Source: an uncultured Alphaproteobacteria bacterium (GTDB taxonomy: Bacteria; Pseudomonadota; Alphaproteobacteria; Rhizobiales; Hyphomicrobiaceae). Taken from it: 64,000 nucleotides of DNA. Under the pieces are notes generated by a model. It worked only from the letters and a program-made list of their open reading frames with translations. It did not search any database and was not told the DNA's origin. A program made the translations under genes and the position numbers. How positions within the stretch are numbered: position 1 is the first letter of the stretch; each line of letters begins with the position of its first letter. This document shows positions 2,777-25,618 of the stretch, piece by piece. The stretch spans positions 6,355 to 70,354 of the forward strand of contig CAVRND010000008.1 of NCBI GenBank assembly GCA_963722495.1, in the 5' to 3' direction.

Positions 2777-2801
2777 AACGCAAGTTCCGGGACGTGGTTC
2801 C
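2777..2801 (-). promoter_or_regulatory. EcfG-type (general stress response sigma) promoter motif
   Basis: GGAAC-CACGTCCCGGAACTTG-CGTT on minus strand, upstream of the co-polymerase gene. Confidence 0.6.
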
Positions 2802-3018
2802 GGTAGTGCTGCACTGCGAAGAAAGCAGTGCTTACGTCAAACAATTGCTCAGGTTGTCGAGTCGCTTAGCTCGGTTCCGCGCTGCGGCAATACTACCCAG
2901 TCGCAAAGCCGGCGACCGTCGGAACTTTTGCCTCATGCTCATCCTTTTGACGTTCGATGCAGCGCAGCATCTGTGCGCCAGTTGCGACGTGTCGTCTTGC
3001 AAACGGGAGGAGTAATTC

Positions 3019-3738
3019 ATGCGGTTGAGCGTAGCTGAGCGTGCGATCCCCGCCGACCGTCAGCGGTTCCATAGGCCTGCACCGACTTCCAGTGCGGCGA
3101 TGGCCGACATCTTTGTTCCTCAGTCCGACCTGCTTCCCGCGCTCGCCGCCAAGCGCGCAATAGACGTCATAGGGTCTGCCAGTCTGTTGATCTTGGCGTC
3201 GCCGCTGCTCATCGGGACCGCGTTGGCGATCAAGGCGACGTCCGCTGGTCCGGTGCTGTTCCGCCAACAGCGTTACGGCTTGAATAATGAGCGCTTCACA
3301 ATTTTCAAGTTCCGCACCATGTTCGCCAACGACGGCGACAGCTCTGGTGTCAACCAGACGCGGACAGGCGATCCGCGGGTGACGAAGCTTGGCAGCTTCC
3401 TACGCCGCACAAACCTTGACGAGCTGCCCCAGCTCATCAACGTGTTGCGCGGCGACATGTCCCTCGTCGGACCGCGACCGCACGTGCCCGGGATGCTTGC
3501 TGGCGGCATGCTCTATGAGGTGCTGGTGCCGTCCTACTTCGCGCGTCATCGCGTACGCCCCGGCATGACGGGTCTGGCGCAGATCAACGAGCTGCGCGGC
3601 AGCACAAGAGAGGCCAAGTTCGCCAGGGCGCGCATCGCGTATGACCTCGCCTACATCGATCATTGGTCGCTCTTTTTGGATCTGCGCATCCTCTGGACCA
3701 CGCTCAAGACGGAGCTGCTGGGCGGCACCGGCAATTGA
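3019..3738 (+). CDS. Priming sugar transferase (polyprenyl-phosphate glycosylphosphotransferase)
   Basis: KRAIDV, FKFRTM, DPRVTKLGSFLRRTNLDELPQLINVLRGDMSLVGPRP, RPGMTGLAQ; RBS GGAGG. Confidence 0.93.
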   Translation: MRLSVAERAIPADRQRFHRPAPTSSAAMADIFVPQSDLLPALAAKRAIDVIGSASLLILASPLLIGTALAIKATSAGPVLFRQQRYGLNNERFTIFKFRTMFANDGDSSGVNQTRTGDPRVTKLGSFLRRTNLDELPQLINVLRGDMSLVGPRPHVPGMLAGGMLYEVLVPSYFARHRVRPGMTGLAQINELRGSTREAKFARARIAYDLAYIDHWSLFLDLRILWTTLKTELLGGTGN

Positions 3739-3789
3739 CCACCCAGACGTCCGAACAAGCTGCAAGCAAGCACGGGTGGGAGAGCGCAG

Positions 3790-4818
3790 ATGCACTATCG
3801 GTCGGTCGCCGATCTGAATGACGATATTGTTTCCGGATTGCACCTCATCCCCGCCGACGTCGAGCTTGTGGTCGGCGTTCCGAGGAGCGGGTTGCTCGCC
3901 GGGATGATCATGTCGCTCACCCTCAACGTCCCGGTGACGGACGTTGAGGGATTCCTAGCGGGACGCATCCTGTGCGCGGGCCGAACGCGGCGACGCGAGA
4001 TTTTCGAATCCGCTCCGTATCGCGCGCGACGCGTGCTCGTTGTAGACGACAGCGCCGACACGGGAAACTCCATGCGCGAGGCAAGGGAACGTCTCACGTC
4101 CGCTTTCCCCGACGTCCAATTCAGCTTTTGCGTCATCTATGCAACGACGCCGCGCTGCGCGGATGTCGATGTCGTATTCAAGGTGATCCCGCAGCCACGC
4201 GTATTCCAATGGAACGTCATGCATCACAACATGCTGGCGCGCTGTTGCGTGGATATCGACGGCGTCCTGTGTGCCGATCCGACCGAGCGCGAGAACGACG
4301 ACGGTGAGGAATACCTGCGCTTCCTGCTCAACGCCCCGGCAATGCACACGCCGACGCGGCGCATCGGCTGGCTGGTGACCAGCCGGCTGCTCAAGTATCG
4401 CGCTGAGACGGAAGCGTGGCTCCGAAAGCGCGGCATTGAGTACGGTGCGCTCGTCATGCTCGATCTGCCGAGCCGCGAGGCGCGGCAAAGATTGAGGTCG
4501 CACGCCGCGTTCAAGGCTGAGACTTACGCGAAGACGAACGGCGCTCTGCTGTTCATTGAGAGCGAGCGGGAGCAGGCGCGCGATATTTGCCGACTTGCCG
4601 GCAAACCTGTGCTCTCGCTCGGCTCGCAGGAGCTGTTCACGCCGGAGCCGCTCTCGAGTGCCGCGCTCGCGCAGCACCTGCGCACCCTGCCGACGCGCTA
4701 CAAGATGCTAAATCCGCCAGCGCGGCAGTTGGCCCGGAGGCTGATCGGCGGCGCCGTAAAATCGACGCTCAGCCCCAGGGTCTACGACGCGCTCAAGACG
4801 CTGAGCGGCCGCAGCTAG
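3790..4818 (+). CDS. Type I phosphoribosyltransferase + HAD-family phosphatase two-domain protein
   Basis: VVGVPRSG and PRPP-binding loop VLVVDDSADTGNSM; HAD motif I CVDIDGVLC, motif II LVTSR, candidate motif III Lys (AAFKA), acidic FIESE. Confidence 0.8.
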   Translation: MHYRSVADLNDDIVSGLHLIPADVELVVGVPRSGLLAGMIMSLTLNVPVTDVEGFLAGRILCAGRTRRREIFESAPYRARRVLVVDDSADTGNSMREARERLTSAFPDVQFSFCVIYATTPRCADVDVVFKVIPQPRVFQWNVMHHNMLARCCVDIDGVLCADPTERENDDGEEYLRFLLNAPAMHTPTRRIGWLVTSRLLKYRAETEAWLRKRGIEYGALVMLDLPSREARQRLRSHAAFKAETYAKTNGALLFIESEREQARDICRLAGKPVLSLGSQELFTPEPLSSAALAQHLRTLPTRYKMLNPPARQLARRLIGGAVKSTLSPRVYDALKTLSGRS

Positions 4819-4857
4819 CCGGAGTTCCGGCCAGGCCGCCAAGCGAGGACGCACGAC

Positions 4858-6334
4858 ATGGGCGTAATCCCTGATCCAGTCATCACCGGCACGCGGGGAG
4901 AGGCTGCGAAGAACGTCTTCTTCATGGGCGCCGCACAGGCCTGGCGGGTCGGTCTCGGTTTCGTCTTCACCGTGATCACGGCGCGGCTTTTGGCCCCGTC
5001 CGATTTCGGCCTCATCGCCATGGTTGCCACCGTGACGGCGCTCGTCACGCTGATCCAAGATCTCGGCGCCACGCAAGCCGTCATCCAGCGCGACAAGATC
5101 TCATCGGGCCAATTAAATTCCCTGTTCTGGCTTTCGGTGGTGCTGGGCGGCGTTCTTGCATTGCTGCTGGTTGCCAGTGCGCCGGCCATTGCCCGCTTCT
5201 TCGATGAGGCGCGACTGGAAAACCTGACCATCGCATTCGCTCTGCCGATCATTGCCGCAGGTCTACAAGCGATACCGTTCGCCCTCCTCAATCGCCACAT
5301 GCGCTTTCGCGAGCTGGCGCTCATCGACGCACTCTCGATGGCGGCCAGCTTCGTCATCGGTGTTGCGTTCGCTTGGCAGCTTGCCAGCTATTGGGCGCTT
5401 TACGCGGCGGCTTGCGCGCAAGCATTCGTGGCTCTTCTCGGCTGCTGGGTCGCCAGCGGCTTTATCCCAGGCAGACCGGAATTCGATCGAGAGACCCGCT
5501 CCACGATAGGGTTCGGATCGGGGATCTCCGGGTTCAACCTTGCGAACTATCTATCGCGCAATGCAGACAAGGTACTCATCGGAAAATTCTACGGCGACGG
5601 GCCGCTCGGTCTATACGACCGTGCCTATCGGCTGCTGCTTTTTCCACTCTCGCAACTTCACGCCCCCATTGGCCGCGTCATGATCCCGCTGCTGTCGCGC
5701 AGCCTTTCCGATCCCGATCGGTACAAGCGCGCCTACGCGGAATGCGTGTCACTCATTCTCATCGCGACGCAGCCTGCCATCCTCTTTGCCACGCTCTATG
5801 CCGAGGACGTATTCAGAATACTTCTGGGCGATAACTGGATCGAATCGGCCCCCATCTTCGCGTGGCTCGGAGTCGCGGGACTGCACCAAGTCATGACCTC
5901 GACGATCGGCTGGCTTTACATCAGCCAGGGCCGGGGTGGCGGATTCTTCCAGATCGGTCTCTTCGGAGCGGTGACGACCGTCGCGTCGTTTGTTGCCGGC
6001 ATGCCATGGGGACCCGTAGGCGTCGCCGCCGCCTACGCCATTTCCGACTACGTCATTCGCCTGCCGGTCATCTGGGCGTGCGCCGGAAGTCGTGGCCCCG
6101 TCACGGTGCGCGACCTATATGCAATGGCTGCACCGCATGCGCTGTCGACGGCGGCGGCCGCCGCGAGTTCTCTTTGCCCTCAAGCCGTTCGTCGAAACGC
6201 CCAATGCGCTGATCTGCGCCGGCTTGGTGGCCGTCAGCTATGCGGCCTACCTTGCCTTTCTCGTCCTGTTTCCGGACAAGCGCGCCTATCTCTTCCAGAA
6301 TGCGGAGTTCATACGGGCCCGCTTTGCCAGATAA
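4858..6334 (+). CDS. Wzx-type polysaccharide flippase (GumJ/WzxC-like), frameshift ~6165
   Basis: ARLLAPSDFGL, many TM segments, LGLYDRAYRL. The hydrophobic C-terminus continues in the 6092..6334 frame. Confidence 0.88.
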
Positions 6335-6342
6335 AGCTGGGC

Positions 6343-7320
6343 CTATGCAGCCGTGCGTGGTGCGCGAAGTGTTCGCCGCACACGCTGCATCAGCTCGAGC
6401 GAGTGCTCGACGCGGCGCCGATAGGTCAGATAGTCCGGCGAGGTTGCGCCGTGCCACAACATCAGGCCGACTTGGCGAGCCCGCCGCGGCTCGGTGCGCA
6501 ATGCGTATCGACACAGTTTCCTGAACGCTCTCTGTTTGCCCCGATTGTGGCAGACGTCGGCGAAGATCAGTGCCAGTCTGGCACGGTCACTATCGAGCAG
6601 CGGCGATTTGCGGATATGCGACTTCCAAATGTGTAGATGTCCGGACTGGCGCTTGCGTCCGTCGGTCGAAATGCAGTCACGTGTGCTGAGACGATAGAAT
6701 ACGTGTGCCGGCTTCGAGATGAGCACCTCGCCGGCGTCGGCCGCGCGGATCCATAGATCCCAGTCCTGACACGACTTGAGCTGCTCGTTGAAGCCGCCGA
6801 TGGCAAGGAACTTCTCGCGCCGAACGGTCATGCAGGAGCACGTGCCGAGGAAGTTTTCGGCATGCAGCGCGCGCGCCACGTCGCCGACGCGCTCCTTTTG
6901 CGTTGGCAAATTGCGCACTTGTCCATCGATGACGAGCACATGATTGGAGGCGATCGCGCTCACTCCCTCGCTGGTGCCGGCGATCAACGCGCGCTCGCTC
7001 TCGAGTTTCTGCGGGTGCCAGTAGTCGTCGCTGTCGAGGAAGGCTACCCACTCCGCTGTGGCGACTTTCGCCCCGCGATTTCGCGAGGCCGTGGCGCCGA
7101 GATTGCGGTCGTTGACCAGAATGCGAATGAGGGGGCTGCCGATAGCCATCACGCGGCGCACGGTGTCGTCGGTCGAGCCGTCATCGACGACGATAATCTC
7201 GCTGGCGGGTACCGTTTGCTCAATGACGCTGCTAATCGCTTGCTCAATCGTCTCTCCACGATTGTACGTCGGAACGATCACGGCAAAGTCGCCGGCGCTC
7301 GCTGCAACGGATCTCTGCAT
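6343..7320 (-). CDS. Family 2 glycosyltransferase
   Basis: VIVPTYNR, IIVVDDGSTD, SRNRG, FLDSDD, QDWDLW. Confidence 0.93.
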   Translation of the reverse strand: MQRSVAASAGDFAVIVPTYNRGETIEQAISSVIEQTVPASEIIVVDDGSTDDTVRRVMAIGSPLIRILVNDRNLGATASRNRGAKVATAEWVAFLDSDDYWHPQKLESERALIAGTSEGVSAIASNHVLVIDGQVRNLPTQKERVGDVARALHAENFLGTCSCMTVRREKFLAIGGFNEQLKSCQDWDLWIRAADAGEVLISKPAHVFYRLSTRDCISTDGRKRQSGHLHIWKSHIRKSPLLDSDRARLALIFADVCHNRGKQRAFRKLCRYALRTEPRRARQVGLMLWHGATSPDYLTYRRRVEHSLELMQRVRRTLRAPRTAA

Positions 7321-7366
7321 CTCGCATCACTCCTACATTGCGCGTTGGGATATTCGACGGCCGGCA

Positions 7367-8713
7367 TTAGGGAGCAGCCTTGTCCACCTTCTGTTCGCTG
7401 GCCGCGGCTGCCGCCGCACGCAAGTCCTCGCCTGTCACCATGCGCTTCTGCAGGGCGACCTCCACGACATCACCCGGCAGGAGCTCGTGCTCCTGGTCAG
7501 TGACGACCGGTTCGGCTTGCTTCCGGTAAATAGTGACCTCCGGCTCGGAGCCCTTGCCGCGCACCAGCTGCGAGCGAACAAGACCCGTGTAGACCAGCTT
7601 GTCGCCTACCGCCTGCAGCCGCGCGCGGGTCGTTGCCAGCTTCACGCCAGCGTCCTGCAGATCGAGCAGGACGCTCTTGCGACGCTCATCGGCGAGCTTG
7701 TCGAGCTTGGTGCGTAGCTCATCGCGGCCACGCTCGGCGCGCCCTTTCTCCACGATCGTCTGCAGATAGCGCGTTGACGAGAAGAGTATGGTCCGGCGTG
7801 CGTCTACGACGCGTGTAATCGGTAGGGTCTGCTTGTCGAACAGTCCCTTGATGCGCGAGAATTCCTCGACGTCCGAATCCACGCCCTCCTTTTCTCGCTG
7901 CTGCTGATCCCCCAGCACCGCAATGCGGTCCTCCTCCTTCTTGATGGCGTACTTCAGATATCCCTCGTCCTTGCGGTAAAGGGCGTTGCGGGCCGCGAGC
8001 TGCCGATCCTCGAGGTCAATGATCTGCGCGGCGATCGAAGCTGGAATTGGGGTCTCGCGAAGCGCCTTGCGGTCCAGAGTATCCGCGCTGTCCAGCTCGG
8101 CCTGGAGCCGCTGGATCACAGCCTGCTGCTGGGCAAACTGCGTCCACAGCGTATCGTAGTCGCCCCGCATGTCCGCCTCCTCGAGGAACGGATTCTCCAT
8201 GCGGAAATGCATGATGTCGTAACCGCCGGCGAGCGCAATCGCCTGACGTACAGTCATTCCAGGGCGGAACGGCTGCTCTCCGGGCTTTGACACGTCGCCG
8301 TTGACGTAGATCGGTCGATACTCGGCGATCGTCACGATCACCTCGTCGGGGCCAACCATGACTGGAATCTCGCGGCCGTCGGTGTTTCTCCGGCGGTAGA
8401 CCTTGGAGGCCAGTTGGTCTTGCAGCTTGGTGCGCAGTTGCGGCAACGTAAGGCCAGCCACCTTGAAGTCTCCCACGAGCGGCAAGGCGACGGCCCCGTC
8501 GAGTCGGATGGTGGCGCGTGTCTTGAGATCGGGGGTCGCCGCGGTGGCGAACTCGATGGTATCGCCCGGTGCAACGCGATACTCATCCGCGGTTGCAGGC
8601 GAGAGAACCACCGCCAAAAGGATGACCGTTGTCGCTGCGCACCTGATCGCCTTTATCCGCGGTGAGGGGGCCACCCTCGCCAGTCGCGGCACCCCGATAC
8701 GCGCTGTTGTCAT
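7367..8713 (-). CDS. Polysaccharide biosynthesis/export protein (Wza/ExoF-like) with coiled-coil
   Basis: Signal peptide, YRVAPGD, DGAVALPLVG, IYVNGDVSKPG, TVRQAIALAGG, C-terminal LLPGDVVEV. Confidence 0.9.
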   Translation of the reverse strand: MTTARIGVPRLARVAPSPRIKAIRCAATTVILLAVVLSPATADEYRVAPGDTIEFATAATPDLKTRATIRLDGAVALPLVGDFKVAGLTLPQLRTKLQDQLASKVYRRRNTDGREIPVMVGPDEVIVTIAEYRPIYVNGDVSKPGEQPFRPGMTVRQAIALAGGYDIMHFRMENPFLEEADMRGDYDTLWTQFAQQQAVIQRLQAELDSADTLDRKALRETPIPASIAAQIIDLEDRQLAARNALYRKDEGYLKYAIKKEEDRIAVLGDQQQREKEGVDSDVEEFSRIKGLFDKQTLPITRVVDARRTILFSSTRYLQTIVEKGRAERGRDELRTKLDKLADERRKSVLLDLQDAGVKLATTRARLQAVGDKLVYTGLVRSQLVRGKGSEPEVTIYRKQAEPVVTDQEHELLPGDVVEVALQKRMVTGEDLRAAAAAASEQKVDKAAP

Positions 8714-8855
8714 AGCCCCTCCTCACAAAATGCAGCGCTCTGATCTCCTGCGGTTGAATTCGGCGCTCAGGAACTTGGAGCGGCACGAGACGCCTACATC
8801 CCGCCCCTGTCCCGCCATTCGAAGCGGCCGGAATATCGCACTGCACACACGCGCT

Positions 8856-8880
8856 AACGCGCGCGGCGTCGCTGCGTTCC
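8856..8880 (-). promoter_or_regulatory. EcfG-type promoter motif
   Basis: GGAAC-GCAGCGACGCCGCGCG-CGTT upstream of the wza-like gene. Confidence 0.65.
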
Positions 8881-8914
8881 AAGCTTGGTTCCAATGAGTT
8901 AGATCGCCGCAGCG

Positions 8915-8939
8915 GGAACACAGCCGCACTCTGCGAGTT
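8915..8939 (+). promoter_or_regulatory. EcfG-type promoter motif
   Basis: GGAAC-ACAGCCGCACTCTGCG-AGTT upstream of the second co-polymerase. Confidence 0.6.
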
Positions 8940-9057
8940 CCGCAGGTTGCGGTGCAGCAGAGTTGGCTCGCGCGGGCATTGGTCGTCGGCCAGGGCCCGC
9001 GCGTGAGGTGCTTGCTCGGCGCGGTCCGGTCCCTGTCACAGGCTCTTTGGGGGTGCC

Positions 9058-10872
9058 ATGCTTCACGTACCTACGGATCTTGCGCGTCACGCGATCGAAA
9101 TCAGGAGCCAACCCTCGCAGGCCCACTGGTCGCTCGCTGCCCTGCGTGATGTGATCCGTTGGCGCCGCTCGACGATCATTTGGTCAGTGATTGCGGTGCT
9201 CGTGCCCGCAGTCATCTATCTGGCGGCGGCATCACCGATGTACACGGCGACTGCCGTGCTGATGACCGACACGAAACGCTCGCCGGCTTATGGAGCCGAC
9301 GGCGCTGCCGACACCAGCGTCGACATGGTCGTCGTCGAGAGTCAGGTCGAGACCCTCAAGTCCGACACGATCGCGCTGGCGGTCATCGATAAGCTGCGCT
9401 TGTGGGAGGATCCCGAGTTCGTCGGCAAAGGACCGACGCTTTGGTCCTACGTCATGGGGCTGCTGCGCCCGTCCGGCACCAAGCGACCGGCGACGCAGGA
9501 CATCAAACGCCAGATCGCCGCCGGGAACTTCAAGAAGGCGCTCCAAGTCCAGCGCGCCGGCCGCAGCTACGTGTCGGAGATTTCCTTCACCTCGCTCGAT
9601 CCCAACAAGGCGGCAGCCATCGCCAATGCGATCGCGCAAGCCTACATCGTCGATCAGCTCAGTGCGAAGCTGCAGGTCGCTCAGCGTTCCAGTGATTGGG
9701 TCGAGAATCGCGTCGGCGAATTGCGCCAGCGGGCGAGTGATGCGGCGAAGGCTGTCGCTGAATATAAGAGCGCAAACGGCATCGCCGGAGATGGAGACAA
9801 CACGTCGTCAAATGATCAAGCGGCGGGGACCGCACAGCAGCGCCTTCGCGAGCTCGAAGCTGCGGCGCAGAGCGCCAGGACGGTCTACGAGACATTTCAG
9901 AACCGCTACACCCAAAGTGTCCAGCTTCAGCAACAATCTTTCCCCGTCACTGAAGCTCGGGTTCTCGCCGAGGCTGTGCCCCCGCTCTCCAAGAGCGCGC
10001 CCAAGACGAGCCTAATTCTGCTGCTGGCTGCGGTCGCCGGTGCCTCGCTCGGACTGGTTGCTGCCTTTACGCGTGAGCAGTTGGAGCGACTTGTGCGCAC
10101 GCCGCGGCAGCTCGAGCGCGAGCTCGGCGTGCGGGTTATCGGTTTTTTGCCGAGCGTGAGGCGCCGCCGCTCGCTGCTGTCCCGCGGCGGCCCCTTGCAC
10201 CTGATCGAGGAGTCTAAGCCGGCATCGCTGTCCGGACGGGTGCGACCGCTCTCGCAGGCCGGCGAGGGCGTCAGGGGAATTAAAGTGGCCATCGATCGAT
10301 ATGGCGGTGGCAGTCAGGCGCTCGTGATCGGCATCTCCTCGCCGCACCCCGGCACCGGTAAGACGACGCTCGCCTACAATCTTGCCTTGCTCGCCGCGCG
10401 ATGCGGTAATCGTACGCTGCTGATCGATGGCGATCTGCGCCGATCAACGTTGACGCGAAGCATTGCACCCCAGCACGAGCACGGCATAACCTCGCTTCTC
10501 ACCGGAAAAGCCGATCCTTCGAGCTGTCTCGTCGCGCACGCCGACAATCTGCATTTTCTCGGCGCGTTCCCGGCGCCTGATGCCGGCGGCCATCCTTCTG
10601 ACGCTCTCGCGTCCCCTGCAATGGCCTCAACCCTCGACGGCATGCGGCATGCCTACGACTACATCTTCGTCGATTTGCCGCCCTTGTTGAATTGTGTCGA
10701 CGTGCGCGCGTCTGCGCCGATGATCGGCGCGTTCATCCTGGCCCTTGAATGGGGACGGACGTCTCTCGACGATCTCGACCGAGCCCTTGCAAGCTGCGAC
10801 ATCGTCGTCGAGCGTTTGCTGGGCGTTGCGGTCAATAAGGTGGCGGTCGCAGAAATGGCCCGTCGCTATTAG
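9058..10872 (+). CDS. Polysaccharide co-polymerase / BY-kinase (Wzc/ExoP-like)
   Basis: Wzz N-terminus, two TMs, Walker A PGTGKTT, LLIDGDLRR, YDYIFVDLPP. Confidence 0.9.
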   Translation: MLHVPTDLARHAIEIRSQPSQAHWSLAALRDVIRWRRSTIIWSVIAVLVPAVIYLAAASPMYTATAVLMTDTKRSPAYGADGAADTSVDMVVVESQVETLKSDTIALAVIDKLRLWEDPEFVGKGPTLWSYVMGLLRPSGTKRPATQDIKRQIAAGNFKKALQVQRAGRSYVSEISFTSLDPNKAAAIANAIAQAYIVDQLSAKLQVAQRSSDWVENRVGELRQRASDAAKAVAEYKSANGIAGDGDNTSSNDQAAGTAQQRLRELEAAAQSARTVYETFQNRYTQSVQLQQQSFPVTEARVLAEAVPPLSKSAPKTSLILLLAAVAGASLGLVAAFTREQLERLVRTPRQLERELGVRVIGFLPSVRRRRSLLSRGGPLHLIEESKPASLSGRVRPLSQAGEGVRGIKVAIDRYGGGSQALVIGISSPHPGTGKTTLAYNLALLAARCGNRTLLIDGDLRRSTLTRSIAPQHEHGITSLLTGKADPSSCLVAHADNLHFLGAFPAPDAGGHPSDALASPAMASTLDGMRHAYDYIFVDLPPLLNCVDVRASAPMIGAFILALEWGRTSLDDLDRALASCDIVVERLLGVAVNKVAVAEMARRY

Positions 10873-12106
10873 CGGCCTCTCCGTGCTCGGCCAAGCGATC
10901 GCTGCCCGGAACTTTCGGGCTCGCCACAGATCGCCGGTAAATTCCACCGAGGAACTTCTCGAAGGCGCGGCCAAGCCGCTCGGGGCTGTAATGCCGACAC
11001 CGCTCGATTGCACCGGCCTGCACCCGGGCGAGGAGGGCCCTATCCTGCGCGAGCGTACGTAGGCAGTCGGCCAGGCCGCGATCGTCTCCTGCACGGAAAG
11101 TGAGGCCACTTTTGCCGACTTCGACGATCTCGGGGAGAGCACCAGAACGTGCGGCGACGACGGGTACGCCGTGGGCAAAAGCTTCTATGCAGACGCGCCC
11201 GAAGGGCTCGTCCCACAACGAAGGAACGACCAGCACGTCAATGGCGGGATAGAAGGCCGCCGGATCCGACCAGCCAAGGAAGCGAGCCCGGCCCTCCGGA
11301 AAGATCGCCGACAGTTTCTTTGCGTAGGCCACCGGCCCGTCGCCAGCGATCACATAGTCAAACGGCCCTGCCTCTCCGAGATGCGCTGCGGCGCGTGCGA
11401 GTGTTTCGACACCTTTGTTCGGCGTGACCATGCCGATGTAGCCGATCCGGATCCTTTCGGTTTGCGGGCGCGGCTCGCTGCGCATCGGCCAATCGATCGC
11501 GGCGGGTACCACTTGTTGTCTTGCCCGGACGAAGTAGCCCGCCTCGGCATGCCTATCGAGCATGTGCTGTGACTCTGCGACGACACCATCGACGAGTTGC
11601 GACATAAGCTTTTTGCCGACAGACGTGCAGCGGCACTGCGCGCACTGCCGCGTGCAATTCTTGCCGTCACGAAACATGGTGCCGCGCCAGCACAACAGGA
11701 AGTGGCTTTGCACGACGTGCGCCGTGGGAACGCCGAGGGCTCTGGCAGCGAGCCAAGTGGCCACATTGATGTTCTCGCAGCTAATCGTCATCACGACGTC
11801 CGGCCGCACACTTGCGATCTCGCGACGCATGTGCAGGTACGCCCTCGGGTTTCCGTTCTCGAGTGCATGCCACGCGAGCTTCTTGTAGGCTGGGTTGCTC
11901 TTCCAATAATTCGAGTACACGTTGAGCGACGGCAACGTATGGATCGCGATGCCATCGCGCAATTCGCTGCTGTTCGCGTTCTCCACCGTAACGACGTGCA
12001 CCGAATGCCCGCGCGCGCTAAGCGCCCGCGCGATGCTCTCGGATGCCGCGGGGCCACCGCCCTTACCCGATGGCGGGTACGCAGCGCACGCCAAAAGGAG
12101 CCGCAT
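10832..12106 (-). CDS. Family 4 glycosyltransferase
   Basis: MRLLLACAAYPPSGKGGG, NKGV, VVPSLWDEPFGRVCIEAFAHGVPVV. Start 12106 preferred because the longer ORF start overlaps the promoter motif. Confidence 0.9.
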   Translation of the reverse strand: MRLLLACAAYPPSGKGGGPAASESIARALSARGHSVHVVTVENANSSELRDGIAIHTLPSLNVYSNYWKSNPAYKKLAWHALENGNPRAYLHMRREIASVRPDVVMTISCENINVATWLAARALGVPTAHVVQSHFLLCWRGTMFRDGKNCTRQCAQCRCTSVGKKLMSQLVDGVVAESQHMLDRHAEAGYFVRARQQVVPAAIDWPMRSEPRPQTERIRIGYIGMVTPNKGVETLARAAAHLGEAGPFDYVIAGDGPVAYAKKLSAIFPEGRARFLGWSDPAAFYPAIDVLVVPSLWDEPFGRVCIEAFAHGVPVVAARSGALPEIVEVGKSGLTFRAGDDRGLADCLRTLAQDRALLARVQAGAIERCRHYSPERLGRAFEKFLGGIYRRSVASPKVPGSDRLAEHGEAANSDGPFLRPPPY

Positions 12107-12187: not shown

Positions 12188-12214
12188 GGAACGGATCGGT
12201 CGTAGGGTCGTTCC
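12188..12214. promoter_or_regulatory. Overlapping divergent EcfG-type promoter pair
   Basis: Plus 12188-12212: GGAAC-N16-CGTT. Minus 12214-12190: GGAAC-N16-CGTT. Confidence 0.7.
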
Positions 12215-12375: not shown

Positions 12376-12627
12376 ATGCAGCTTCCCCCTTTCGACGCTT
12401 TTGATGCCGATGTGCTTCGGCTCATGACAGCGGCCCTCGATACGGCCGTCGCAAAATACTACGGGTCCTTGGTCGACGACGACCAGCGGCGGACCATGGC
12501 GCGCCGTGTTGTCTTCGCTGCCGGGCACGGCGACCGGGACCTCGATATTTTGGCGCGCGCGGCCCTCAATCCCGCGCACGCCCTTGCCGGTCTTCGTCTT
12601 CCCACACCTCATCGCAGCTCGGCGTGA
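12376..12627 (+). CDS. Small helical hypothetical protein
   Basis: RBS AAGGAG; FDADVLRLMTAALD...GDRDLDILARAAL pattern shared with 13403 and 25653. Confidence 0.7.
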   Translation: MQLPPFDAFDADVLRLMTAALDTAVAKYYGSLVDDDQRRTMARRVVFAAGHGDRDLDILARAALNPAHALAGLRLPTPHRSSA

Positions 12628-13402: not shown

Positions 13403-13660
13403 TTACCTTCGATGGTTGCGTTGGAGATGACCGATGATCCGGTCATCCGTCGCAAGCAGAGCGATCCTCCTCAGGTGCTCCGGGGCGCGCAAGCCGTCGT
13501 CGACGGCCCGCATGATCAGGAATGCCATCGCATCGCGCGTAGCCTGCTCGTCGCCGCCCCCGCCGGGACGCCTCTTCGCCTCTTGCCACGCGCTGTCGAG
13601 CGCCGACGTCATCAGCGTCAACAGCTCAGGTCCGTAAAAACGGCCACCCCCGAACGGCAT
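13403..13660 (-). CDS. Small helical hypothetical protein (similar to 12376)
   Basis: RBS GAGGGGG; YGPELLTLMTSALD...GLRAPEHLRRIAL. Confidence 0.7.
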   Translation of the reverse strand: MPFGGGRFYGPELLTLMTSALDSAWQEAKRRPGGGGDEQATRDAMAFLIMRAVDDGLRAPEHLRRIALLATDDRIIGHLQRNHRR

Positions 13661-13748: not shown

Positions 13749-13773
13749 GGAACCAGGCACGGCAGTCGGCGTT
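13749..13773 (+). promoter_or_regulatory. EcfG-type promoter motif
   Basis: GGAAC-CAGGCACGGCAGTCGG-CGTT. Confidence 0.6.
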
Positions 13774-13927
13774 TCAGGCCGGAAGTCTCGCTGGCTTCGC
13801 TGACCTACCGTGTCGCTTTTTCCCGGTAGCCCGCCGAGCCCGAGGGGCAGTTTCGTGCTGCGGGGCTCGCTTTGTTGCAGCCGAAGCGGTGCCAGCCCGC
13901 ACAACAGTTTCGTAAGGGGGAACGTCC

Positions 13928-14086
13928 ATGGACATCAAAGGTGTTGTGTTCGTTGTGGCGATCATCGTCTTGATCGCAGGGGCCATGTGGTACTTCGCCG
14001 CCGAGCCAACGGCGACAACCACCACAACAAGCTCAGCCACATCCGCAGCGACGACGTCGGAAACGCCGTCGCCCATCGCTCCCTAG
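13928..14086 (+). CDS. 52-aa single-TM protein with Thr/Ser-rich tail
   Basis: RBS AAGGGGG; MDIKGVVFVVAIIVLIAGAMWYFAAEPTATTTTTSSATSAATTSETPSPIAP; below ORF-track cutoff. Confidence 0.7.
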   Translation: MDIKGVVFVVAIIVLIAGAMWYFAAEPTATTTTTSSATSAATTSETPSPIAP

Positions 14087-15458: not shown

Positions 15459-16722
15459 TCAAGCGACGGAGCGAACCGCGCCGCTATCGTCCGCGGGGAT
15501 GGTCACCTCAATCATACTCGGACGCGTTGGGGATACGGCAACAACGACCCCTCCGCCGTGTTGCCGGGCGATCTGGTGAACAAGTGCGAGCCCTAGTCCA
15601 GATCCTTGCGACCGCGTACCCCGCAGACGGTAGAATGGCGCGAATACCCGCTCTTGCTCGCTCGGCGGGATGCCTGGTCCTCCATCGCTCACTGTCAGAA
15701 CGGCTCGCTGTCCCCGTCGGCGAACCCGGATCTCAACGGGAGGGGATCCGTGCAGCTGGGCATTTTCGATGAGGTTCCGGATCAGTCGCCGCAATAGTGT
15801 CGGGTCGCCAGGGACGACGACAGGGTCGCCCGTGATATCGAACTCAGCGCAACGCGCACCCTCCTCGGCGGCGAGCGCCAGCAGATCCACCTCTTCGCGA
15901 ACATCGAGCTCCCTGACAGCATCGAGGCGGCTAGAGAGCAAGATTTGCTCGATTAGCGCATCGATTTCGGTGACGTCCTTTTCCAGATCGGCCTTGCGCT
16001 TGGGGTCCGCGACGTCTTTGAGCAGCTCAGCCGTCAGGCGCAGGCGCGACAGCGGCGTTCTGAGCTCATGAGAAACATTGGCGAGCAACAGCTTGTGTGC
16101 TCCGACCAGCATCTCGATCTGTGCCGCGGCGCTGTTGAAGCTTTCCGCCAGGCGTGCCGACCTCGTCGCAGCCTTCGACTTTTACCCGCGCCGTAAGGTC
16201 GCCTGATCCCAATGCCTCTACGCTCAGATTGCAGGCGTTCGAGCCGGCGCGTCACGCGCCGCACGACCGGATAGCAAAGAAGCGCGATCAGGAGTGCCCA
16301 CAGGGACAAACAATTTCACCTTCTCGATAGATCTCTTGCGTCGGAGAGAATCCTCGTGCCTCGATCCAGGCTCCATTGCTTAGCCGAATACCAATGGCAG
16401 GCCTGATGGCCACGTAGACGTTTTCTCCGCCCCCATCGCCGACGGCGTCGATGAGACGACTGTCAGCGCCAAAAAGGGCAAAGTCGACGCCTACTGTGTT
16501 GGATAGATCGGTGAGGAAGCGGCGGCGGGCGACCGGATCTGAGTCGGGAGATAGCAAACGGCGCAACTCGAAAGTGGCGACGCTCTCGAGAACAATTTGG
16601 GCATCATTCTTGCGTCCTGACAAATGCCAGAGACCAATGATCCCGAAGACGACAATCAAGAGTGCCCCGAACATCGTCAGGTAAAGTTGGTAGTGAAATC
16701 GGGTGTAGATCTTGCGGGTCAA
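15459..16722 (-). CDS. Sensor histidine kinase (TM-HAMP-HisKA-HATPase), frameshifts ~16310, ~16175-16150
   Basis: NVSHELRTPL H-box, NLIENA, VSDGGPGIP, GSGLGLAL; start overlaps the response regulator stop. Confidence 0.88.
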
Positions 16723-17405
16723 TCCTGCGTCCTCGCGAACACGTATCCGGTGCCCCGAACGGTAATGATCCGGCGCGGCTTCTTCGGATCGTCTTCGATG
16801 TTCGCCCGGATGCGCGAGATGTGGACGTCGATCGACCGGTCGAACGCCTCGAGGGTCTCACCCTTCACGAGGTCCATGAGCGCCTCGCGTGCCATGACGC
16901 GGCCGGGGCGCTCGGCGAGCGCAACGAGCAGCTCGAACTGATAGTTCGTCAACCCCCGCGCGACACCATCGATACGCGTCTCGCGTCCGCCGCGATCGAT
17001 TTCGAGCCGGCCGAACGCCAACACGTCGCCCTTCTGCGCGTCTTTGCCCCGCCGCAAGATCGCCCGCAAGCGCGCCAACAGCTCGCGGGGCTCGAAGGGT
17101 TTGGGTAGATAGTCGTCCGCCCCCAGCTCCAGTCCGATGATCCGATCCATGGCTTGCCCGCGCGCCGTCAGCATCAGGATCGGCGTCGTCGCCGCTCCGC
17201 GCACTTGGCGGCACACCTCAAGGCCATCGACGTCGGGGAGCATCACATCCAGCACTATGGCGTCGAAGCCATCGCGCGCGTGCAACTTCAGTCCCGCGCC
17301 GCCGCTGGCAGCGTGCGAAACAGCAAATCCTGCGCCGCCGAGATACTCGCGCAACATCTCGGCGAGTCGCATGTCGTCCTCGATCAGGAGGATCTGTTGC
17401 ATCAT
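16719..17405 (-). CDS. OmpR/CpxR-family response regulator
   Basis: ILLIEDD, LDVMLP, LMLTA, GADDYLPKPF, DRSIDVHISRIR, TVRGTGY. Confidence 0.95.
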   Translation of the reverse strand: MMQQILLIEDDMRLAEMLREYLGGAGFAVSHAASGGAGLKLHARDGFDAIVLDVMLPDVDGLEVCRQVRGAATTPILMLTARGQAMDRIIGLELGADDYLPKPFEPRELLARLRAILRRGKDAQKGDVLAFGRLEIDRGGRETRIDGVARGLTNYQFELLVALAERPGRVMAREALMDLVKGETLEAFDRSIDVHISRIRANIEDDPKKPRRIITVRGTGYVFARTQD

Positions 17406-17838: not shown

Positions 17839-17842
17839 GCTG

Positions 17843-18300: not shown

Positions 18301-18327
18301 ACGACGTGCAGCCACTCGCTCTCTCTC

Positions 18328-18342
18328 TTCACAAAACTTTAC
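18328..18342. promoter_or_regulatory. Second CpxR/OmpR-type box
   Basis: TTCACAAAACTTTAC, 14/15 identical to the reverse complement of 17540-17554. Confidence 0.5.
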
Positions 18343-18390
18343 GCCGCCGAAAGACGCCGGCAACCGGCGCCTGCAAACCTGCGGCCAACC

Positions 18391-18912: not shown

Positions 18913-18983
18913 AGATCAAAGGCAGTCCTCGCACGAAGCTCGATCAGGCTCCGTGAACGCAGTCCCTACTTTGAGAGGTAGAT

Positions 18984-19382: not shown

Positions 19383-19547
19383 TTCCGAGAGTCATAAAGG
19401 CCAATTGCCGACGGCTGCGGAGGGCGTGATCGAAGGCATATGCTTAACAGCGCGCCAGCAACATACCTTTACAATGGGTCATGTTTTCGCCGACCCGTTT
19501 GAATAGGTCTCCAATCTCGGGGTGCGCGAGGCGATCCACTTGTTTGC

Positions 19548-20813: not shown

Positions 20814-20992
20814 ATTCAACGTCAATGGCGCACACCAGACGTCCGCCTTCGCCATCCCAATTAGCTTCTGCCGGTGGCCTCTGGCCGCGATTGCGCCAGC
20901 GGCGGCAACGCTGTCGGAAAACTGTCATTTATGACAGATACGGTCGTCCTCTATCGACCAGCACGCGGCGGCACCCCCGCGATCGGAGCCGC

Positions 20993-22630
20993 ATGTCAAC
21001 TCCCCAAGATATTCCGGCAGGGTCGGTGCGCATATTGTCCCCCGCCGACGGTCCCGTGCGATCGGTGCGCCACTTCCGCCAGATCGTCTTGTGGCCGATC
21101 CAGATCAGCACGGCTGGAAAAGGGAGCCGTCGCGAGAGCGCCGAGGCGCTGTTTGAGCGGCTAGCAGGCGACGCGTGGGCGCTGGTCGACGATGAGTTCG
21201 GCGTCAAGGGCGAGGACTTTCAAGAGCGCCACTATCGCGAATTCGTCAGCTTCCTTCCGCACGTGCAACGCTTTCTCTACGGCGATGCGCCAGGCCCCGT
21301 GCGCGGTCTCGGCAACGGCGACGCGCCCCTGCGTGTCTATCGGCGCACCGATATTGAAGCGGTCCGCTTGGTGCTCAGCGAAGGGGCCGCACCGGTGACG
21401 TGCAAAGTGGCGCACGTCGACCTGCATTTCTTTCACGATGTCGACGCCGTCATCCTCGCCTTCGAATTCTGGGCGTCCGACCTTCCGCTCGCCGTGGTGC
21501 ACGAGATCATGTACCGCTTCGGCCGCGCGTATCCCCCCGGCTGGAGCGAGAGCGGTGAGCCGCTGCATTGTCCGGTGCGGGTCGAGTGGCTCGACAAGGA
21601 CGGCCGAGTGCTCGCGACCTCGGACTATGAGAACCGGAATCGGTACCTTTCATTCGTCGGCCATCAGCGCACACCGTGCTTTGCAGCGCATTGGGAGTTC
21701 CTGCTGAAGCCGCTGGCGGCCGAAAACTCCGGCAGCAAGAGCCCCTTGAGCTTCCGCCAGATCGAATACTACCGCATGCCCGTGATGACATATCTAACCC
21801 TCGATCGGCTGTGGGATGTGCAGCGCGTCGACTTCATGCGCCTCGCGTTCGCAACGGGGCCAAGCGCCAATGGCGATGCGCCTTACGCCGAGCGCTTCCT
21901 GCACGATTTCGAGACGCGCAACTGTTACGACCGCTATTATCACGAGGGCACCGAGACGCCGCGCGTGAACACGCGCTTCCTGCTGTCGGGTCACGCATTC
22001 ACCATCGTCGCCGACGGAACGTCGCCGGATCTCGAGGACAACGAGCGCGGGCTCTTAGGCCAGTTCCGGCACCAGTACTTTCTGCTGTTTCTCATCAGCC
22101 ATTTTCACAAGGCGGCGCTGCTGATGCTGTCCGACCGCCTGGTCGCGGCAATCAAGCGTCTCGAGATGAAGAGCGCGCGTTCGGCGGTCGAGTTCCGCCG
22201 CGAGACCTATCGCGTGCAGGAAACCTTCATGCGCTTTACGCAACGCTACTGGTTTACCGAGGTCTCCGATCAAGCGCAGACGCGTGACCTCTTCCGGCTG
22301 CAGCGCATGCACCTCGGCAATGACGATCTCTACAAGGAGCTGCGCAACGAGATCTTCGACATGGTGCAGTACCTCGACAGCGACGTCCTTCGCCGACAGA
22401 GCGGCACCATTCACCGCCTGACGGCAGTAACCATTCTGGGCTTGATCGGCACCATTGCCACCGGCTTTCTCGGCATGAATCTGATCGACGAAACCGCGGC
22501 GCCGCTGAGCACCAAGGTCATCTATTTCGGCATGGTCGGTATAGTGGTCGTGGCGCTGACGGTGGGGGTTGTCATGTTCTCGCGTCCCCTGACCGCGCTC
22601 CTCGACCGCCTCTCCGGCGAGCGCTCTTAG
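20993..22630 (+). CDS. CorA-like membrane protein with large N-terminal soluble domain
   Basis: RBS GGAG; two C-terminal TMs with GFLGMN; 545 aa. Confidence 0.8.
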   Translation: MSTPQDIPAGSVRILSPADGPVRSVRHFRQIVLWPIQISTAGKGSRRESAEALFERLAGDAWALVDDEFGVKGEDFQERHYREFVSFLPHVQRFLYGDAPGPVRGLGNGDAPLRVYRRTDIEAVRLVLSEGAAPVTCKVAHVDLHFFHDVDAVILAFEFWASDLPLAVVHEIMYRFGRAYPPGWSESGEPLHCPVRVEWLDKDGRVLATSDYENRNRYLSFVGHQRTPCFAAHWEFLLKPLAAENSGSKSPLSFRQIEYYRMPVMTYLTLDRLWDVQRVDFMRLAFATGPSANGDAPYAERFLHDFETRNCYDRYYHEGTETPRVNTRFLLSGHAFTIVADGTSPDLEDNERGLLGQFRHQYFLLFLISHFHKAALLMLSDRLVAAIKRLEMKSARSAVEFRRETYRVQETFMRFTQRYWFTEVSDQAQTRDLFRLQRMHLGNDDLYKELRNEIFDMVQYLDSDVLRRQSGTIHRLTAVTILGLIGTIATGFLGMNLIDETAAPLSTKVIYFGMVGIVVVALTVGVVMFSRPLTALLDRLSGERS

Positions 22631-22790
22631 TCCAGCGCCTGGCTAAAACATTCCGTCGTTCAGCAGCATTTCTTCGACTATCGGATAGGCCCGGGTTGGA
22701 CCGTGGCGACCGACTAACCATATCCCGGTCAGGGAGAGGCCAGCGCAGCCGCGCCGGATTGGCGCGTTAAACAAGTCGGGAGTAGCAAGC

Positions 22791-23051
22791 ATGAGCGTAA
22801 TGAAGTTGGCCGCGTTGGGCTTTGCCGCCCTGGCCGTTGCAGCGCCGACGGCAGTGTGGGCGGATTCCTATTGGGAGGTCGAGGCAGCGCGCGCCAATGC
22901 GCGGGCCGGCGGTCCAACCAATGCGCGTGATGCCGAGCTACTCGAGCGCTATGGCTGCCTCAGCGGTACGCGCAGCGCGTTCTGCGAGCGACAGTCGGGC
23001 GAGCGAGCGCCGCGCCGCTACTATCGGGCACAGCGCCGTTACACGCGCTAA
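22791..23051 (+). CDS. Small secreted protein
   Basis: RBS GGGAG, signal peptide, GCLSGTRSAFC, Arg/Tyr tail. Confidence 0.7.
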   Translation: MSVMKLAALGFAALAVAAPTAVWADSYWEVEAARANARAGGPTNARDAELLERYGCLSGTRSAFCERQSGERAPRRYYRAQRRYTR

Positions 23052-23070
23052 CAGCCACCGTACGCGCAAC

Positions 23071-23101
23071 GAAAGCCCCGCCTGAAGCAGGCGGGGCTTT
23101 C
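23071..23101. terminator. Bidirectional rho-independent terminator
   Basis: GAAAGCCCCGCCTG-AAG-CAGGCGGGGCTTTC, perfect 14-bp stem between convergent genes. Confidence 0.85.
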
Positions 23102-23123
23102 TCGTTGGAGTGATGCTCGAAGC

Positions 23124-25459
23124 CTAGGCGGGGACGGCGTCCGCCAGCTCGCGTGACGCTTCGGCCTTGGGCGTCGCCGCTGCACGCACGCGCACCGGGA
23201 TCGACTTGTACGCCGGCGTGCCGCTGCGCGCGTCGAAGCTCTGCAGCGCGACGAGCGGATTGGCTTCGGGATAATACGCCGCTGCCGAATTCCTGGCGAT
23301 CTCGAACTCGACCGCGGTGAGGTTGCGCAGCACGCGCGCCTCTCCGGCGTCGCCCGCAGATGCGATCGCCTCGACGTCGACGAGATCGCCGTGGCTCAAC
23401 CCGCGCGCCTCGAGGTCATCCTTGTGCATGAAGATGACGTCGCGCCGCCCCGTGATGCCGCGATAGCGATCGTTGAAGCCGTAGATCGTCGTATTGTACT
23501 GATCGTGGCTGCGAACGGTGGCGAGCATCAGCGCTTCAGGCTCGCCGGCACGCGCATCGCAATCGAGGCCGTCGAACACGATGAAGTTGGCCTTGCCGTT
23601 CGTCGTCAGCCATTGGCGCTCGGACGCGGCAATGTGGAGACGGAAGCCGCCCGGCACGCGCACGCGCTCGTTGAAATCTGCAAAGGCCGGGAACACCTTC
23701 TCGATCGCATCGCGGATGGTGTTGTAGTCGGCGACAAATCCGTCCCAATCGACCTTGCTGTTGGGCAGCGTCGCCTTGGCGATGCCGGCGACGACGGCGG
23801 GCTCGGATTTGAGATCAGGGCGAGGCCGGCTTCAGACGCCCGGCCGACGCGTGCACCACCGACATCGAAGTCTTCGACCGTCACCGATTGCGGACCGGTC
23901 TCCTGCTCGTCGAGCTCCGTGCGTCCCAGGCACGGAAGAATGATCGACGTTTTGGCGAGCAGCAAATGCGAGCGGTTGAGCTTGGTGGCGATGTGCACTG
24001 CGAGGTCCAGCTTGCGCATGGCGTCGAAGCACACTTCGGGGTCGGACATCGCCACCGGGAGATTGCCGCCCATGCAGACCAGCGCTTTCGAACGGCCCTC
24101 GGCCATGGCCTTTATAGCCTCGACGGCGCCGTGGCCGTGCTCGCGCGGTGGCTTGAAGCCGAACGTCGCCTCGAGGCGATCCAGAAGCTCGGCATTGGGG
24201 ATCTCGGTGATGCCGACGGTGCGGTCGCCCTGCACGTTGGAGTGGCCGCGCAACGGGCAGATGCCCGCGCCCTCGCGCCCGATCTGACCCCGCATCAGCA
24301 TCAGGTTGGCGAGCTGCTGCACCACCTGCGTGCCGTGCCGGTGCTGCGTCAGCCCCATGCCGTAGCAGAAGATGACGTTCTTGGCGTTGGCGTAGATCTC
24401 GGCCGTGCTCTCGATCTCGCGGCGCGTGAGGCCGGAGCAGCGCTCGATGTCCTTCCACTTCGTCGCCTTGAGATCCTGAACCAGGGCCTCGTATCCGGCG
24501 GTGTGCTCGGCGAGGAAGGCGCGGTCGATGACCTGGCGGCCGTTCTTGCCCTCAAGCGCCAACAGCGCCTTCATCAGCCCCTTCATCACCGCAGCGTCGC
24601 CGCCGACGCGCACCTGGTGGTAGACGGAGGCGATCTTGGTTGCGCGCCCGGTCAGCATCTCCACCGGATGCTGCGGCGATAGAAAGCGCTCCAGCCCACG
24701 CTCCTTCAGCGGGTTGAACACCACGATGGTGCCGCCGCGCTTCGACACATCGCGCAGCGTCGACAGCATGCGCGGATGATTGGTGCCGGGGTTATGCCCC
24801 ATGCAGAAAACAAGGTCGGCATGATCGAAGTCTTCGAGCGTCACGGTGCCTTTGCCGACCCCGATGGAATCCGGCAGGCCGACGCTCGTCGCCTCGTGAC
24901 ACATGTTGGAGCAGTCGGGGAAATTGTTGGTACCGAACTCGCGCACGAACACCTGATACATGAACGCCGCTTCGTTCGATGTGCGGCCCGAGGTGTAAAA
25001 CTCCGCCATGTTCGGGTTGGGCAGCTTGCGCAGCTCGCGGCCGATGCGCGCGAACGCGTCCTCCCACGCGATGGGGACGAAGTGGTCGCTCGCCGCGTCG
25101 TAGATTACCGGATGCGTCAGACGCCCGGCGTCCTCGAGCGCGAAGTCCGTCCAGTTCCACAGCTCCGAAGCGGTATGCGAGGCGAAGAACTCGAGGTCCG
25201 CCCGCTTGCGCGTCGCTTCCCACGCCACCGCCTTGGCGCCATTCTCGCAGAACTCGAACGACGAGGCATGACGCGGATCGGGCCAGGCGCAGCCGGGACA
25301 ATCAAAGCCCTGCGGCTGGTTTACGCGGCGCAAAGCGCGTGTCTCGCGGTTGAGGGCCATCTGCGCACGCAGAGCGCGCGCCACGGCCTGCAATGCACCC
25401 CAGCCGCCGGCAGGACCGCCGTAGGCGCCTACACCCGGGACCTTCTCGTGTTTAGTCAT
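23124..25459 (-). CDS. FdhF/YdeP-family molybdopterin oxidoreductase, frameshifts ~23810-23870
   Basis: PAGGWGAL, GFDCPGCAWPD, FCENGAKA, NFPDCSNMCHE, RGHSNVQG, TVRSHDQYNTTIYG, YYPEAN, TPAYKS. Confidence 0.92.
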
Positions 25460-25498
25460 CGCTCACCCGCGCTCGATCGCAATTACCGACGAAAGTCG

Positions 25499-25523
25499 AA
25501 CAGCTCGACTTAAGAACCGTTCC
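25499..25523 (-). promoter_or_regulatory. EcfG-type promoter motif
   Basis: GGAAC-GGTTCTTAAGTCGAGC-TGTT upstream of the oxidoreductase. Confidence 0.55.
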
Positions 25524-25593
25524 AGATGAGGCTTCTAAGGAGCCGACAAGTTTAGCAAAAGCCGCTGGGCGCGTACCACCTATGCATTAAGTG

Positions 25594-25618
25594 GGAACCC
25601 ACGCTTGCGAGGCGAGTT
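25594..25618 (+). promoter_or_regulatory. EcfG-type promoter motif
   Basis: GGAAC-CCACGCTTGCGAGGCG-AGTT upstream of the small protein at 25653. Confidence 0.55.

Follow-up and report, generated by a model that had tools for sequence, protein, structure and literature searches.

EcfG-type promoters with conserved PhaR-type boxes at a polysaccharide cluster of an uncultured Hyphomicrobiaceae bacterium

The 64,000 nucleotides (nt) analyzed here, called the window throughout, come from an uncultured alphaproteobacterium of the Hyphomicrobiaceae (GenBank assembly GCA_963722495.1; 4.05 Mb, 86% complete) and correspond to positions 6355-70354 of contig C8 (CAVRND010000008.1). Window positions 1-12106 are spanned by a Wzx/Wzy-type polysaccharide cluster built of five divergent or convergent transcription units, to which the closest named loci are in Hyphomicrobium metagenome-assembled genomes. 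Each unit is faced by a promoter motif of the type read by EcfG, the sigma factor of the general stress response, and at four of the five, conserved boxes of the type bound by the regulator PhaR lie close to that motif, an arrangement that could gate production of this exopolysaccharide (EPS) by both stress and carbon surplus. The same promoter motif faces a divergent gene pair farther along, and the genes concerned are as follows (aa, amino acids).

1-1055, minus strand: GT4 glycosyltransferase part of a 615-aa GT4-WecB/TagA fusion glycosyltransferase
1078-2767, minus strand: wzc1, chain-length regulator/tyrosine kinase, with a frameshift near 2050 in the assembly
3019-3738, plus strand: priming sugar transferase (PF02397)
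3790-4818, plus strand: type I phosphoribosyltransferase (PRTase) fused to a HAD-like DxD domain, a candidate ribofuranosyltransferase
4858-6340, plus strand: Wzx flippase, with a frameshift near 6167 in the assembly; end approximate
6343-7320, minus strand: GT2 glycosyltransferase
7367-8713, minus strand: Wza-type polysaccharide export protein
9058-10872, plus strand: wzc2, chain-length regulator/tyrosine kinase
10832-12106, minus strand: GT4 glycosyltransferase
23124-25459, minus strand: FdhF/YdeP molybdopterin oxidoreductase (TIGR01701 over cut-off), with a frameshift near 23868 in the assembly
25653-25862, plus strand: 69-aa protein, family unassigned

Unit 1 comprises wzc1, the GT4-WecB fusion gene, a Wzy-like open reading frame (ORF), a GT2 gene, and a GH5 gene, the last three lying to the left of the window. 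Unit 2 holds the priming transferase, the PRTase-HAD protein, and the flippase; unit 3 is wza with a GT2 gene, unit 4 is wzc2, and unit 5 is the GT4 gene. The priming transferase, glycosyltransferases, Wzx, Wzc, and Wza expected of a Wzx/Wzy system are all present, and the hydrophobic 475-aa Wzy-like ORF, which has no Pfam or NCBIfam match, is named by position only. Capsules and loose EPS are built with the same parts.

The EcfG consensus consists of a -35 element GGAAC, a spacer of 16 or 17 nt, and a -10 element (C/G)GTT (PMC4814048, PMC6599016). GGAAC-N16-NGTT occurs nine times in the window against 0.98 expected from shuffles, a figure matching the estimate of about one chance match per 64 kb made in an earlier, sequence-only reading of this DNA. 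No shuffled window among 100 reached nine sites (the highest count was three), and 15 other spacer lengths within 10 to 25 nt gave zero or one site each. Five sites have the consensus CGTT, compared with AGTT in two and TGTT in two. All nine lie outside annotated genes, as the sequence-only reading had said of the eight sites it reported, and the ORF that each faces is 9 to 203 nt away; each of those eight was found again at the same coordinates and on the same strand, and the ninth, 8917-8941(-), had been overlooked. The same reading gave a stress-sigma site to four of the five EPS units, a count that rises to five because the priming-transferase unit has GGAAC-N17-CCTT at 2921, which fits a relaxed -10 only. 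Another site, at 43842 and with a 17-nt spacer, is intragenic and was set aside. The predicted sites, with their conservation, are listed below.

2777-2801, minus strand: EcfG-type promoter of unit 1 (wzc1 onward), kept in 5/5 relatives
2921-2946, plus strand: variant EcfG-type promoter, GGAAC-N17-CCTT, of unit 2, in 5/5 relatives
8856-8880, minus strand: EcfG-type promoter of unit 3 (wza, GT2), in 4/4 relatives covering it
8915-8939, plus strand: EcfG-type promoter of unit 4 (wzc2), in 4/4 relatives, with a 17-nt spacer there
8917-8941, minus strand: the 8915 palindrome read in reverse and probably incidental, in 0/4 relatives
12188-12212, plus strand: the 12190 palindrome read in reverse, uncertain as a promoter of the 83-aa ORF (12376-12627) that it faces, in 0/4 relatives
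12190-12214, minus strand: EcfG-type promoter of unit 5 (GT4), in 4/4 relatives
13749-13773, plus strand: EcfG-type site facing a 52-aa ORF (13928-14086) with one hydrophobic stretch
25499-25523, minus strand: EcfG-type promoter of the FdhF/YdeP oxidoreductase gene, in 6/7 close relatives
25594-25618, plus strand: EcfG-type promoter of the 69-aa protein gene, in 7/7 close relatives

The pairs 8915/8917 and 12188/12190 are single palindromes read both ways, so that the nine sites mark seven independent places within 23 kb. Seven such places have a probability of about 2e-5 against the genome's own mean motif density, and no 25-kb stretch of the genome is denser: nine sites fall here, compared with seven in the next regions. 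Palindromic, bidirectional promoters were considered as a designed feature and rejected: six exist in the genome, which is near chance, and both extra readings here are unconserved. At wzc1 the end of the -10 element and the ATG at 2767 are 9 nt apart, and the transcript from this promoter is thus possibly leaderless.

Conservation was followed in five relatives that carry a syntenic cluster (L013-L016 and L094, at about 60 to 80% protein identity; L016 is partial), with L013-L016 used for identity alignments. Among all loci compared, one duplicate was counted once, and L056 comes from the same genome as L050. In the alignments, -35 boxes are 100% identical, spacers 31 to 48%, and whole intergenic regions 44 to 49%; at 2777-2801(-), both boxes are 100% identical around a spacer at 41%. 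The 2921 site retains GGAAC with CCTT, ACTT, or CATT in all five relatives, its TT falling at N18/19, and a TT after GGAAC(C/T) is conserved. Neither the 83-aa nor the 52-aa ORF, the ones faced by 12188(+) and 13749(+) and both without a Pfam match, was found in the relatives' loci. The sequence-only reading had placed small proteins and an oxidoreductase in one stress regulon; the conserved sites at ydeP and the 69-aa gene uphold part of that claim, which is uncertain at the unconserved 12188(+). Among distant ydeP homologue loci, 25499(-) is kept in 1 of 15. The YdeP/Fdh4A-type oxidoreductase itself (23124-25459) is 92 to 97% identical in several relatives.

The motif behaves in the same way across the genome, in statistics that rest on a crude, purpose-made gene caller and are weaker for it. 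Rather than being equally common in coding DNA, the motif is mostly non-coding, with 104 of 151 N16 sites and 78 of 93 N17 sites outside genes, compared with 18 to 35 non-coding sites at 14 other spacers. Sense sites within 300 nt of a gene number 62 and 56 at the correct spacers and 2 to 10 at the others. The enrichment is clear for GGAAC and strongest where it is paired with CGTT (59 and 49 instances of GGAAC-N16/17-CGTT against a control mean of 8.3). Variant -10 boxes as a genome-wide class were rejected for lack of enrichment. Other blocks dense in EcfG-type sites, with 5 to 7 per 25 kb, lie at C28:305-323 kb, C27:3-47 kb, C6, and C5:30-50 kb.

The cognate regulators, whose presence the sequence-only reading had left to be confirmed, are indeed encoded in the genome: phyR, nepR, ecfG, and two HWE kinase genes lie together at C28:318-325 kb, with family matches to PhyR (NF006623) and an EcfG-type sigma factor (NF009199), both over cut-off, and to NepR (PF18557). 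The nepR and ecfG reading frames overrun their expected ends, probably from assembly indels. The motif recurs upstream of nepR-ecfG, phyR, one HWE kinase gene, and a DUF1328 gene, including sites at C28:320556(+) and 322540-322564(-). In total, 118 sense targets are predicted; 14 chosen by eye were scanned, and the 12 with a Pfam match include DJ-1/PfpI, two DUF892, two PRC-barrel, catalase, and DUF4142 proteins. DJ-1/PfpI, DUF892, PRC, catalase, and DUF4142 are usual families of stress regulons. Families like these are given in part in Table 1 of PMC6599016. Near phyR, a small ORF at C28:317844-318053, upstream of a Crp/Fnr gene, looks NepR-like by eye and has no Pfam match.

Two alternatives can be set against these results. 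That the sites are chance matches is hardly credible: two of the nine (8917- and 12188+) are kept in none of four relatives and palindromes that give double sites occur at close to chance frequency (CC closes 12 of the 104 non-coding sites, against a background of 7.8%), but the window count, the genome-wide enrichment, and the conservation in relatives all contradict chance, which is already refuted for the six conserved consensus sites. It is also improbable that these promoters, or the variant 2921 site, are recognized by a different extracytoplasmic function (ECF) sigma factor whose -35 is of the GGAA type. Six further ECF-like sigma matches exist in the genome, the S. meliloti ECF26 factor RpoE6 overlaps the RpoE2 regulon (PMC6180224), and the 2921 site combines a nonconsensus -10 with a conserved TT after GGAAC(C/T). 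Against such a factor, nepR-ecfG and phyR are themselves preceded by the motif, a look at the 450 nt ahead of the region-2 match in each of the other ECF matches turned up no GGAAC, GGAAT with CGTT is barely raised (12 against a control mean of 6.1), and CATT and CTTT variants of the -10 are listed for EcfG-dependent genes (S. meliloti rpoE5, PMC6180224; S. melonis, PMC6599016). The assignment to EcfG made in the sequence-only reading is thereby backed by genome enrichment, a cognate locus, stress-type targets, and a cross-species footprint. The protective capsule that it also suggested is one possible product, loose EPS being the other. From this sequence evidence, EcfG very probably reads the six conserved consensus sites, and 2921 is a probable fifth EPS promoter.

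Contigs from soil RNA libraries add a weak hint. With few mismatches, they lie on EPS genes, small ORFs, and ydeP, and one (13800-14036) overlaps the 52-aa ORF. Predicted starts are placed 6 to 7 nt behind the -10. Contig ends at 2968, 12168, and 13800 fall 15 to 21 nt past three of these starts, a loose fit, and contigs can show neither strand nor start. The two RNA runs had identical contigs, counted as one, and were retrieved with the window stretch itself, which lowers their value as support; they are thin over 14.6-22.4 kb, a stretch in which one DNA run reaches every one of 30 bins, and this pattern was not used as evidence.

A second layer of control is suggested by boxes of the PhaR type. 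The consensus for Bradyrhizobium diazoefficiens PhaR is a 12-bp box, TGCRNYGCASMA (PMC6201568), and the window contains three exact and two degenerate boxes of this type that are conserved.

2719-2730, plus strand: exact 12-mer PhaR-type box in the first wzc1 codons, about 40 nt past the wzc1 promoter
2807-2818, minus strand: one-mismatch PhaR-type box immediately ahead of the wzc1 -35; 81% identity
2958-2969, plus strand: PhaR-type box, exact 12-mer, at about +6 to +17 of the predicted priming-transferase start
8836-8847, no strand assigned: degenerate PhaR-type box immediately following the wza promoter
8948-8959, plus strand: PhaR-type box, exact 12-mer, spanning about +3 to +14 relative to the wzc2 start as predicted; exact in 4/4 relatives

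Each of the window's three exact boxes follows an EPS promoter at a distance of no more than 60 nt, and all are conserved. Box 8948-8959 has 89% identity in the alignment; box 2958-2969 has 62%, with its 9-nt core in 4 of 5 relatives; and box 2719-2730 is exact in 4 of 5 and retains the core in 5 of 5, where coding constraint may contribute. Box 8836-8847, inexact in the window, shows 78% identity, and 3 of 4 relatives share its core. Of the 96 exact boxes in the genome, 73 are non-coding, compared with 23 to 35% for seven rearranged control patterns and 32 to 57% for three control patterns sharing the 9-nt core. The genome encodes phaR, phaC, and five phasin matches, with boxes upstream of phaR (one mismatch) and of two of the five phasin matches. 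In another family, all five loci examined (L070-L074) have a homologous flippase-PRTase unit with two conserved PhaR-type boxes 100 to 170 nt upstream of the flippase gene and, over 400 nt, no GGAAC; these genes thus seem to be under PhaR-type control more widely, with the EcfG layer particular to the present cassette. Four more distant loci (L075-L077 and a duplicate) are neutral on this question. About 30 nt upstream of the 2921 -35, a further block at 2875-2895 is conserved (78% identity, 10 of 15 positions invariant) and is perhaps another PhaR-type or activator site.

In the general stress response, stress kinases phosphorylate PhyR, and PhyR~P captures NepR and frees EcfG (PMC4814048, PMC6180224); PhaR binds a 12-bp box, and loss of phaR raises EPS in several rhizobia (PMC6201568). 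In the mechanism we propose, stress would act through the PhyR-NepR switch to free EcfG, which would transcribe all five EPS units, the ydeP-type oxidoreductase gene, and the small-protein genes, initiating about 6 to 7 nt behind each -10. In the standard model, PhaR is released by granules of polyhydroxybutyrate (PHB). Sitting at about +3 to +17 (wzc2, wza, priming transferase) or at +40 (wzc1), PhaR would block transcription until growing PHB granules draw it away and release four units, the net logic being an AND gate of stress and carbon surplus. Conserved EcfG-type motifs with adjacent PhaR-type boxes suggest that production of the polysaccharide probably requires stress and spare carbon together. 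More speculatively, the nonconsensus -10 at the priming transferase would make the committing step the promoter of highest threshold. We lean toward this reading as a whole, that of EcfG promoters with PhaR repression of four EPS units until carbon is in surplus, and as a separate matter hold the PhaR gate on the EPS promoters to be somewhat favored.

Several observations weigh against that reading. The unit 5 promoter has no PhaR-type box; the box is short and GC-rich, and among its copies one is coding and one degenerate. Three exact boxes per window were reached in 16 of 100 shuffles, and one-mismatch boxes number 26 against 31 expected. An exact box lies near 5 of 182 non-coding EcfG sites genome-wide, three of them here, so the pairing is local; a general EcfG-PhaR pairing was rejected, since the 5 of 182 compare with 23 of 2,287 control windows and fall mostly in the polysaccharide cluster. 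CCTT, ACTT, and CATT variants of the -10 occur at about chance level genome-wide, and the relatives are not independent tests, being kin that share one cassette. The M. extorquens gene annotated ydeP shows no dependence on EcfG (fold change, -1.3), and the regulon sheet for that species lists only 1 of the 13 genes with the annotation "polysaccharide" (PMC4814048 supplement). The repressor sign is read from box position, and PhaR can also activate genes (PMC6201568, PMC10888616). EcfG might drive the cluster with no gate, the TGC-rich boxes being read by another regulator, serving PhaR as activator, or being incidental. A box count at about the level of chance, a degenerate consensus, and PhaR's activating role speak for this alternative; conservation of the boxes at fixed places but not of their flanks, boxes upstream of phaR, phasins, and the homologous EPS unit in another family, and the overlap of three boxes with the predicted first transcribed bases speak against it, and we consider it possible but rather unlikely.

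Set beside the PhyR-NepR-EcfG (ECF15; RpoE2, SigT) regulons of Methylobacterium extorquens AM1 (PMC4814048) and Sinorhizobium meliloti (PMC6180224), the system proposed here shares the consensus and spacer, a regulator locus with self-directed promoters, more than 100 predicted sites, and the kinds of targets. It differs in having an EcfG site at each unit of a whole Wzx/Wzy cluster, whereas the supplements for those two species link EcfG to EPS weakly, through scattered polysaccharide genes only (exoI at +1.5 and exoM at +0.6 log2 in S. meliloti RpoE2 data, PMC6180224; META1_0581 at -3.6-fold in M. extorquens, PMC4814048), and in the EcfG-type promoter of the ydeP-type gene, unlike the ydeP-annotated gene of M. 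extorquens. A further parallel is in Sphingomonas melonis Fr1, where EPS and glycosyltransferase genes of operon 3506-3509 are EcfG-dependent (log2 -3.3 to -4.3 in the mutant); that case is a single operon with mostly low-scoring motifs and, in the text consulted, no link to PhaR (PMC6599016).

The PhaR (AniA) regulon of B. diazoefficiens uses the same 12-bp box, and its boxes overlap promoters (PMC6201568, PMC10888616). PhaR there binds the promoter of an EPS operon (blr2367-2371, exoZ), and loss of phaR doubles EPS (PMC6201568). No EcfG promoter is described for these targets in the text consulted, the word "EcfG" occurring 0 times in PMC10888616, whereas here the boxes sit on EcfG-type promoters. 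Literature searches that took in few of the subscription papers on EcfG regulons found no pairing of EcfG and PhaR on the same promoters; two papers contain both terms. Regulation of M. loti EPS is unstudied according to a review (PMC8227245). Clusters of EcfG promoters are ordinary, the links from EcfG to EPS and from PhaR to EPS are each already published, and the cluster is in kind an ordinary ECF15 regulon; its five-of-five wiring with conserved PhaR-type boxes is a modest new variant. If the reading is true, the locus would offer a clean, conserved case of both regulators acting on the same promoters, with exact bases given for mutation, and would tie the general stress response to the partitioning of carbon between PHB and EPS.

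The PRTase-HAD protein of unit 2 (3790-4818) is a separate lead. It has 342 aa, with a type I PRTase domain first (PF00156 in 36 of 36 aligned members) and a HAD-like domain second, the latter with an invariant DIDGVL and a weak match to Pnkp1 (E, 0.017). A structure model (pLDDT, 82) matches purine PRTases in fold searches, and sequence and fold searches for homology to the characterized gPRT/CriT enzymes listed nucleotide-salvage PRTases only. There are at least 2,318 homologues, many of the named ones from Mesorhizobium at about 50%, and the gene adjoins a flippase gene in the relatives and in L070-L074-type loci; in L074 it belongs to an exo-type cluster with flippase, GT4, GT2, GMC oxidoreductase, and UDP-glucose dehydrogenase genes. 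Known ribofuranosyltransferases pair a transferase using phosphoribosyl pyrophosphate with a HAD phosphatase, and in gPRT-PRP (Klebsiella O4/O7) and CriT-CrpP (Haemophilus Bcs3), as here, a PRTase-like domain is linked to a HAD-type phosphatase within a polysaccharide cluster (PMC11231755, PMC10299916). The present protein differs from both in that its compact, classical type I PRTase precedes the HAD-like domain. In M. loti, the terminal sugar of the EPS is riburonic acid (PMC8227245). Taken together, the domain pairing, the glycan-cluster setting, and this sugar make the protein a candidate that may be a two-step ribofuranosyltransferase of different build, and its gene could be tested as a source of the ribose or riburonic acid in rhizobial EPS. 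A neighboring GMC oxidoreductase could convert ribose to the riburonic acid found in Mesorhizobium EPS; none like that of L074 was found in the 86% complete source genome.

The PRTase-HAD gene occurs in 3 of 251 genomes of the family (three genera) and 10 of 401 of the order, and a wzc2 search of 61 genomes gave no orthologue above 39% identity outside the source genome. The rarity of the cluster across family and order suggests a cassette that moves together with its regulatory wiring. A fuller picture, of a mobile cassette with its own two-input logic, a weak committing promoter, a ribose coat made through PRTase-HAD as a second kind of ribofuranosyltransferase of independent origin, and a Mesorhizobium homologue that with a GMC oxidoreductase gives riburonic acid, is speculative and seems doubtful as a whole.

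DNA-run contigs differ from the assembly by one base at 2053, 6167, and 23868, and rpoD of the source genome is likewise frameshifted; the frameshifts in wzc1, the flippase gene, and ydeP are therefore probably assembly errors. Gene decay is disfavored on the same grounds, and strain differences are a less likely source. Near-duplicate sigma-factor regions on separate contigs (C11:113 kb and C18:4.5 kb; C3:363 kb and C4:21 kb) suggest that the assembly contains a mixture of strains.

Three small helical ORFs in the window have no Pfam match, at 12376-12627(+), 13403-13660(-), and 25653-25862(+). The first two have weak relatives on contigs C26 and C28 of the same genome, and an Atlas search with the third, the 69-aa protein, gave unnamed clusters only, at 0.80 or less. 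A 1,169-aa ORF at 28386-31895(+), without a Pfam or NCBIfam match, has a low-GC upstream region. At 15459-17405(-), an OmpR-type regulator and a histidine kinase cut down to its HisKA and HATPase domains, with unrelated DNA between them, look like a broken two-component pair.

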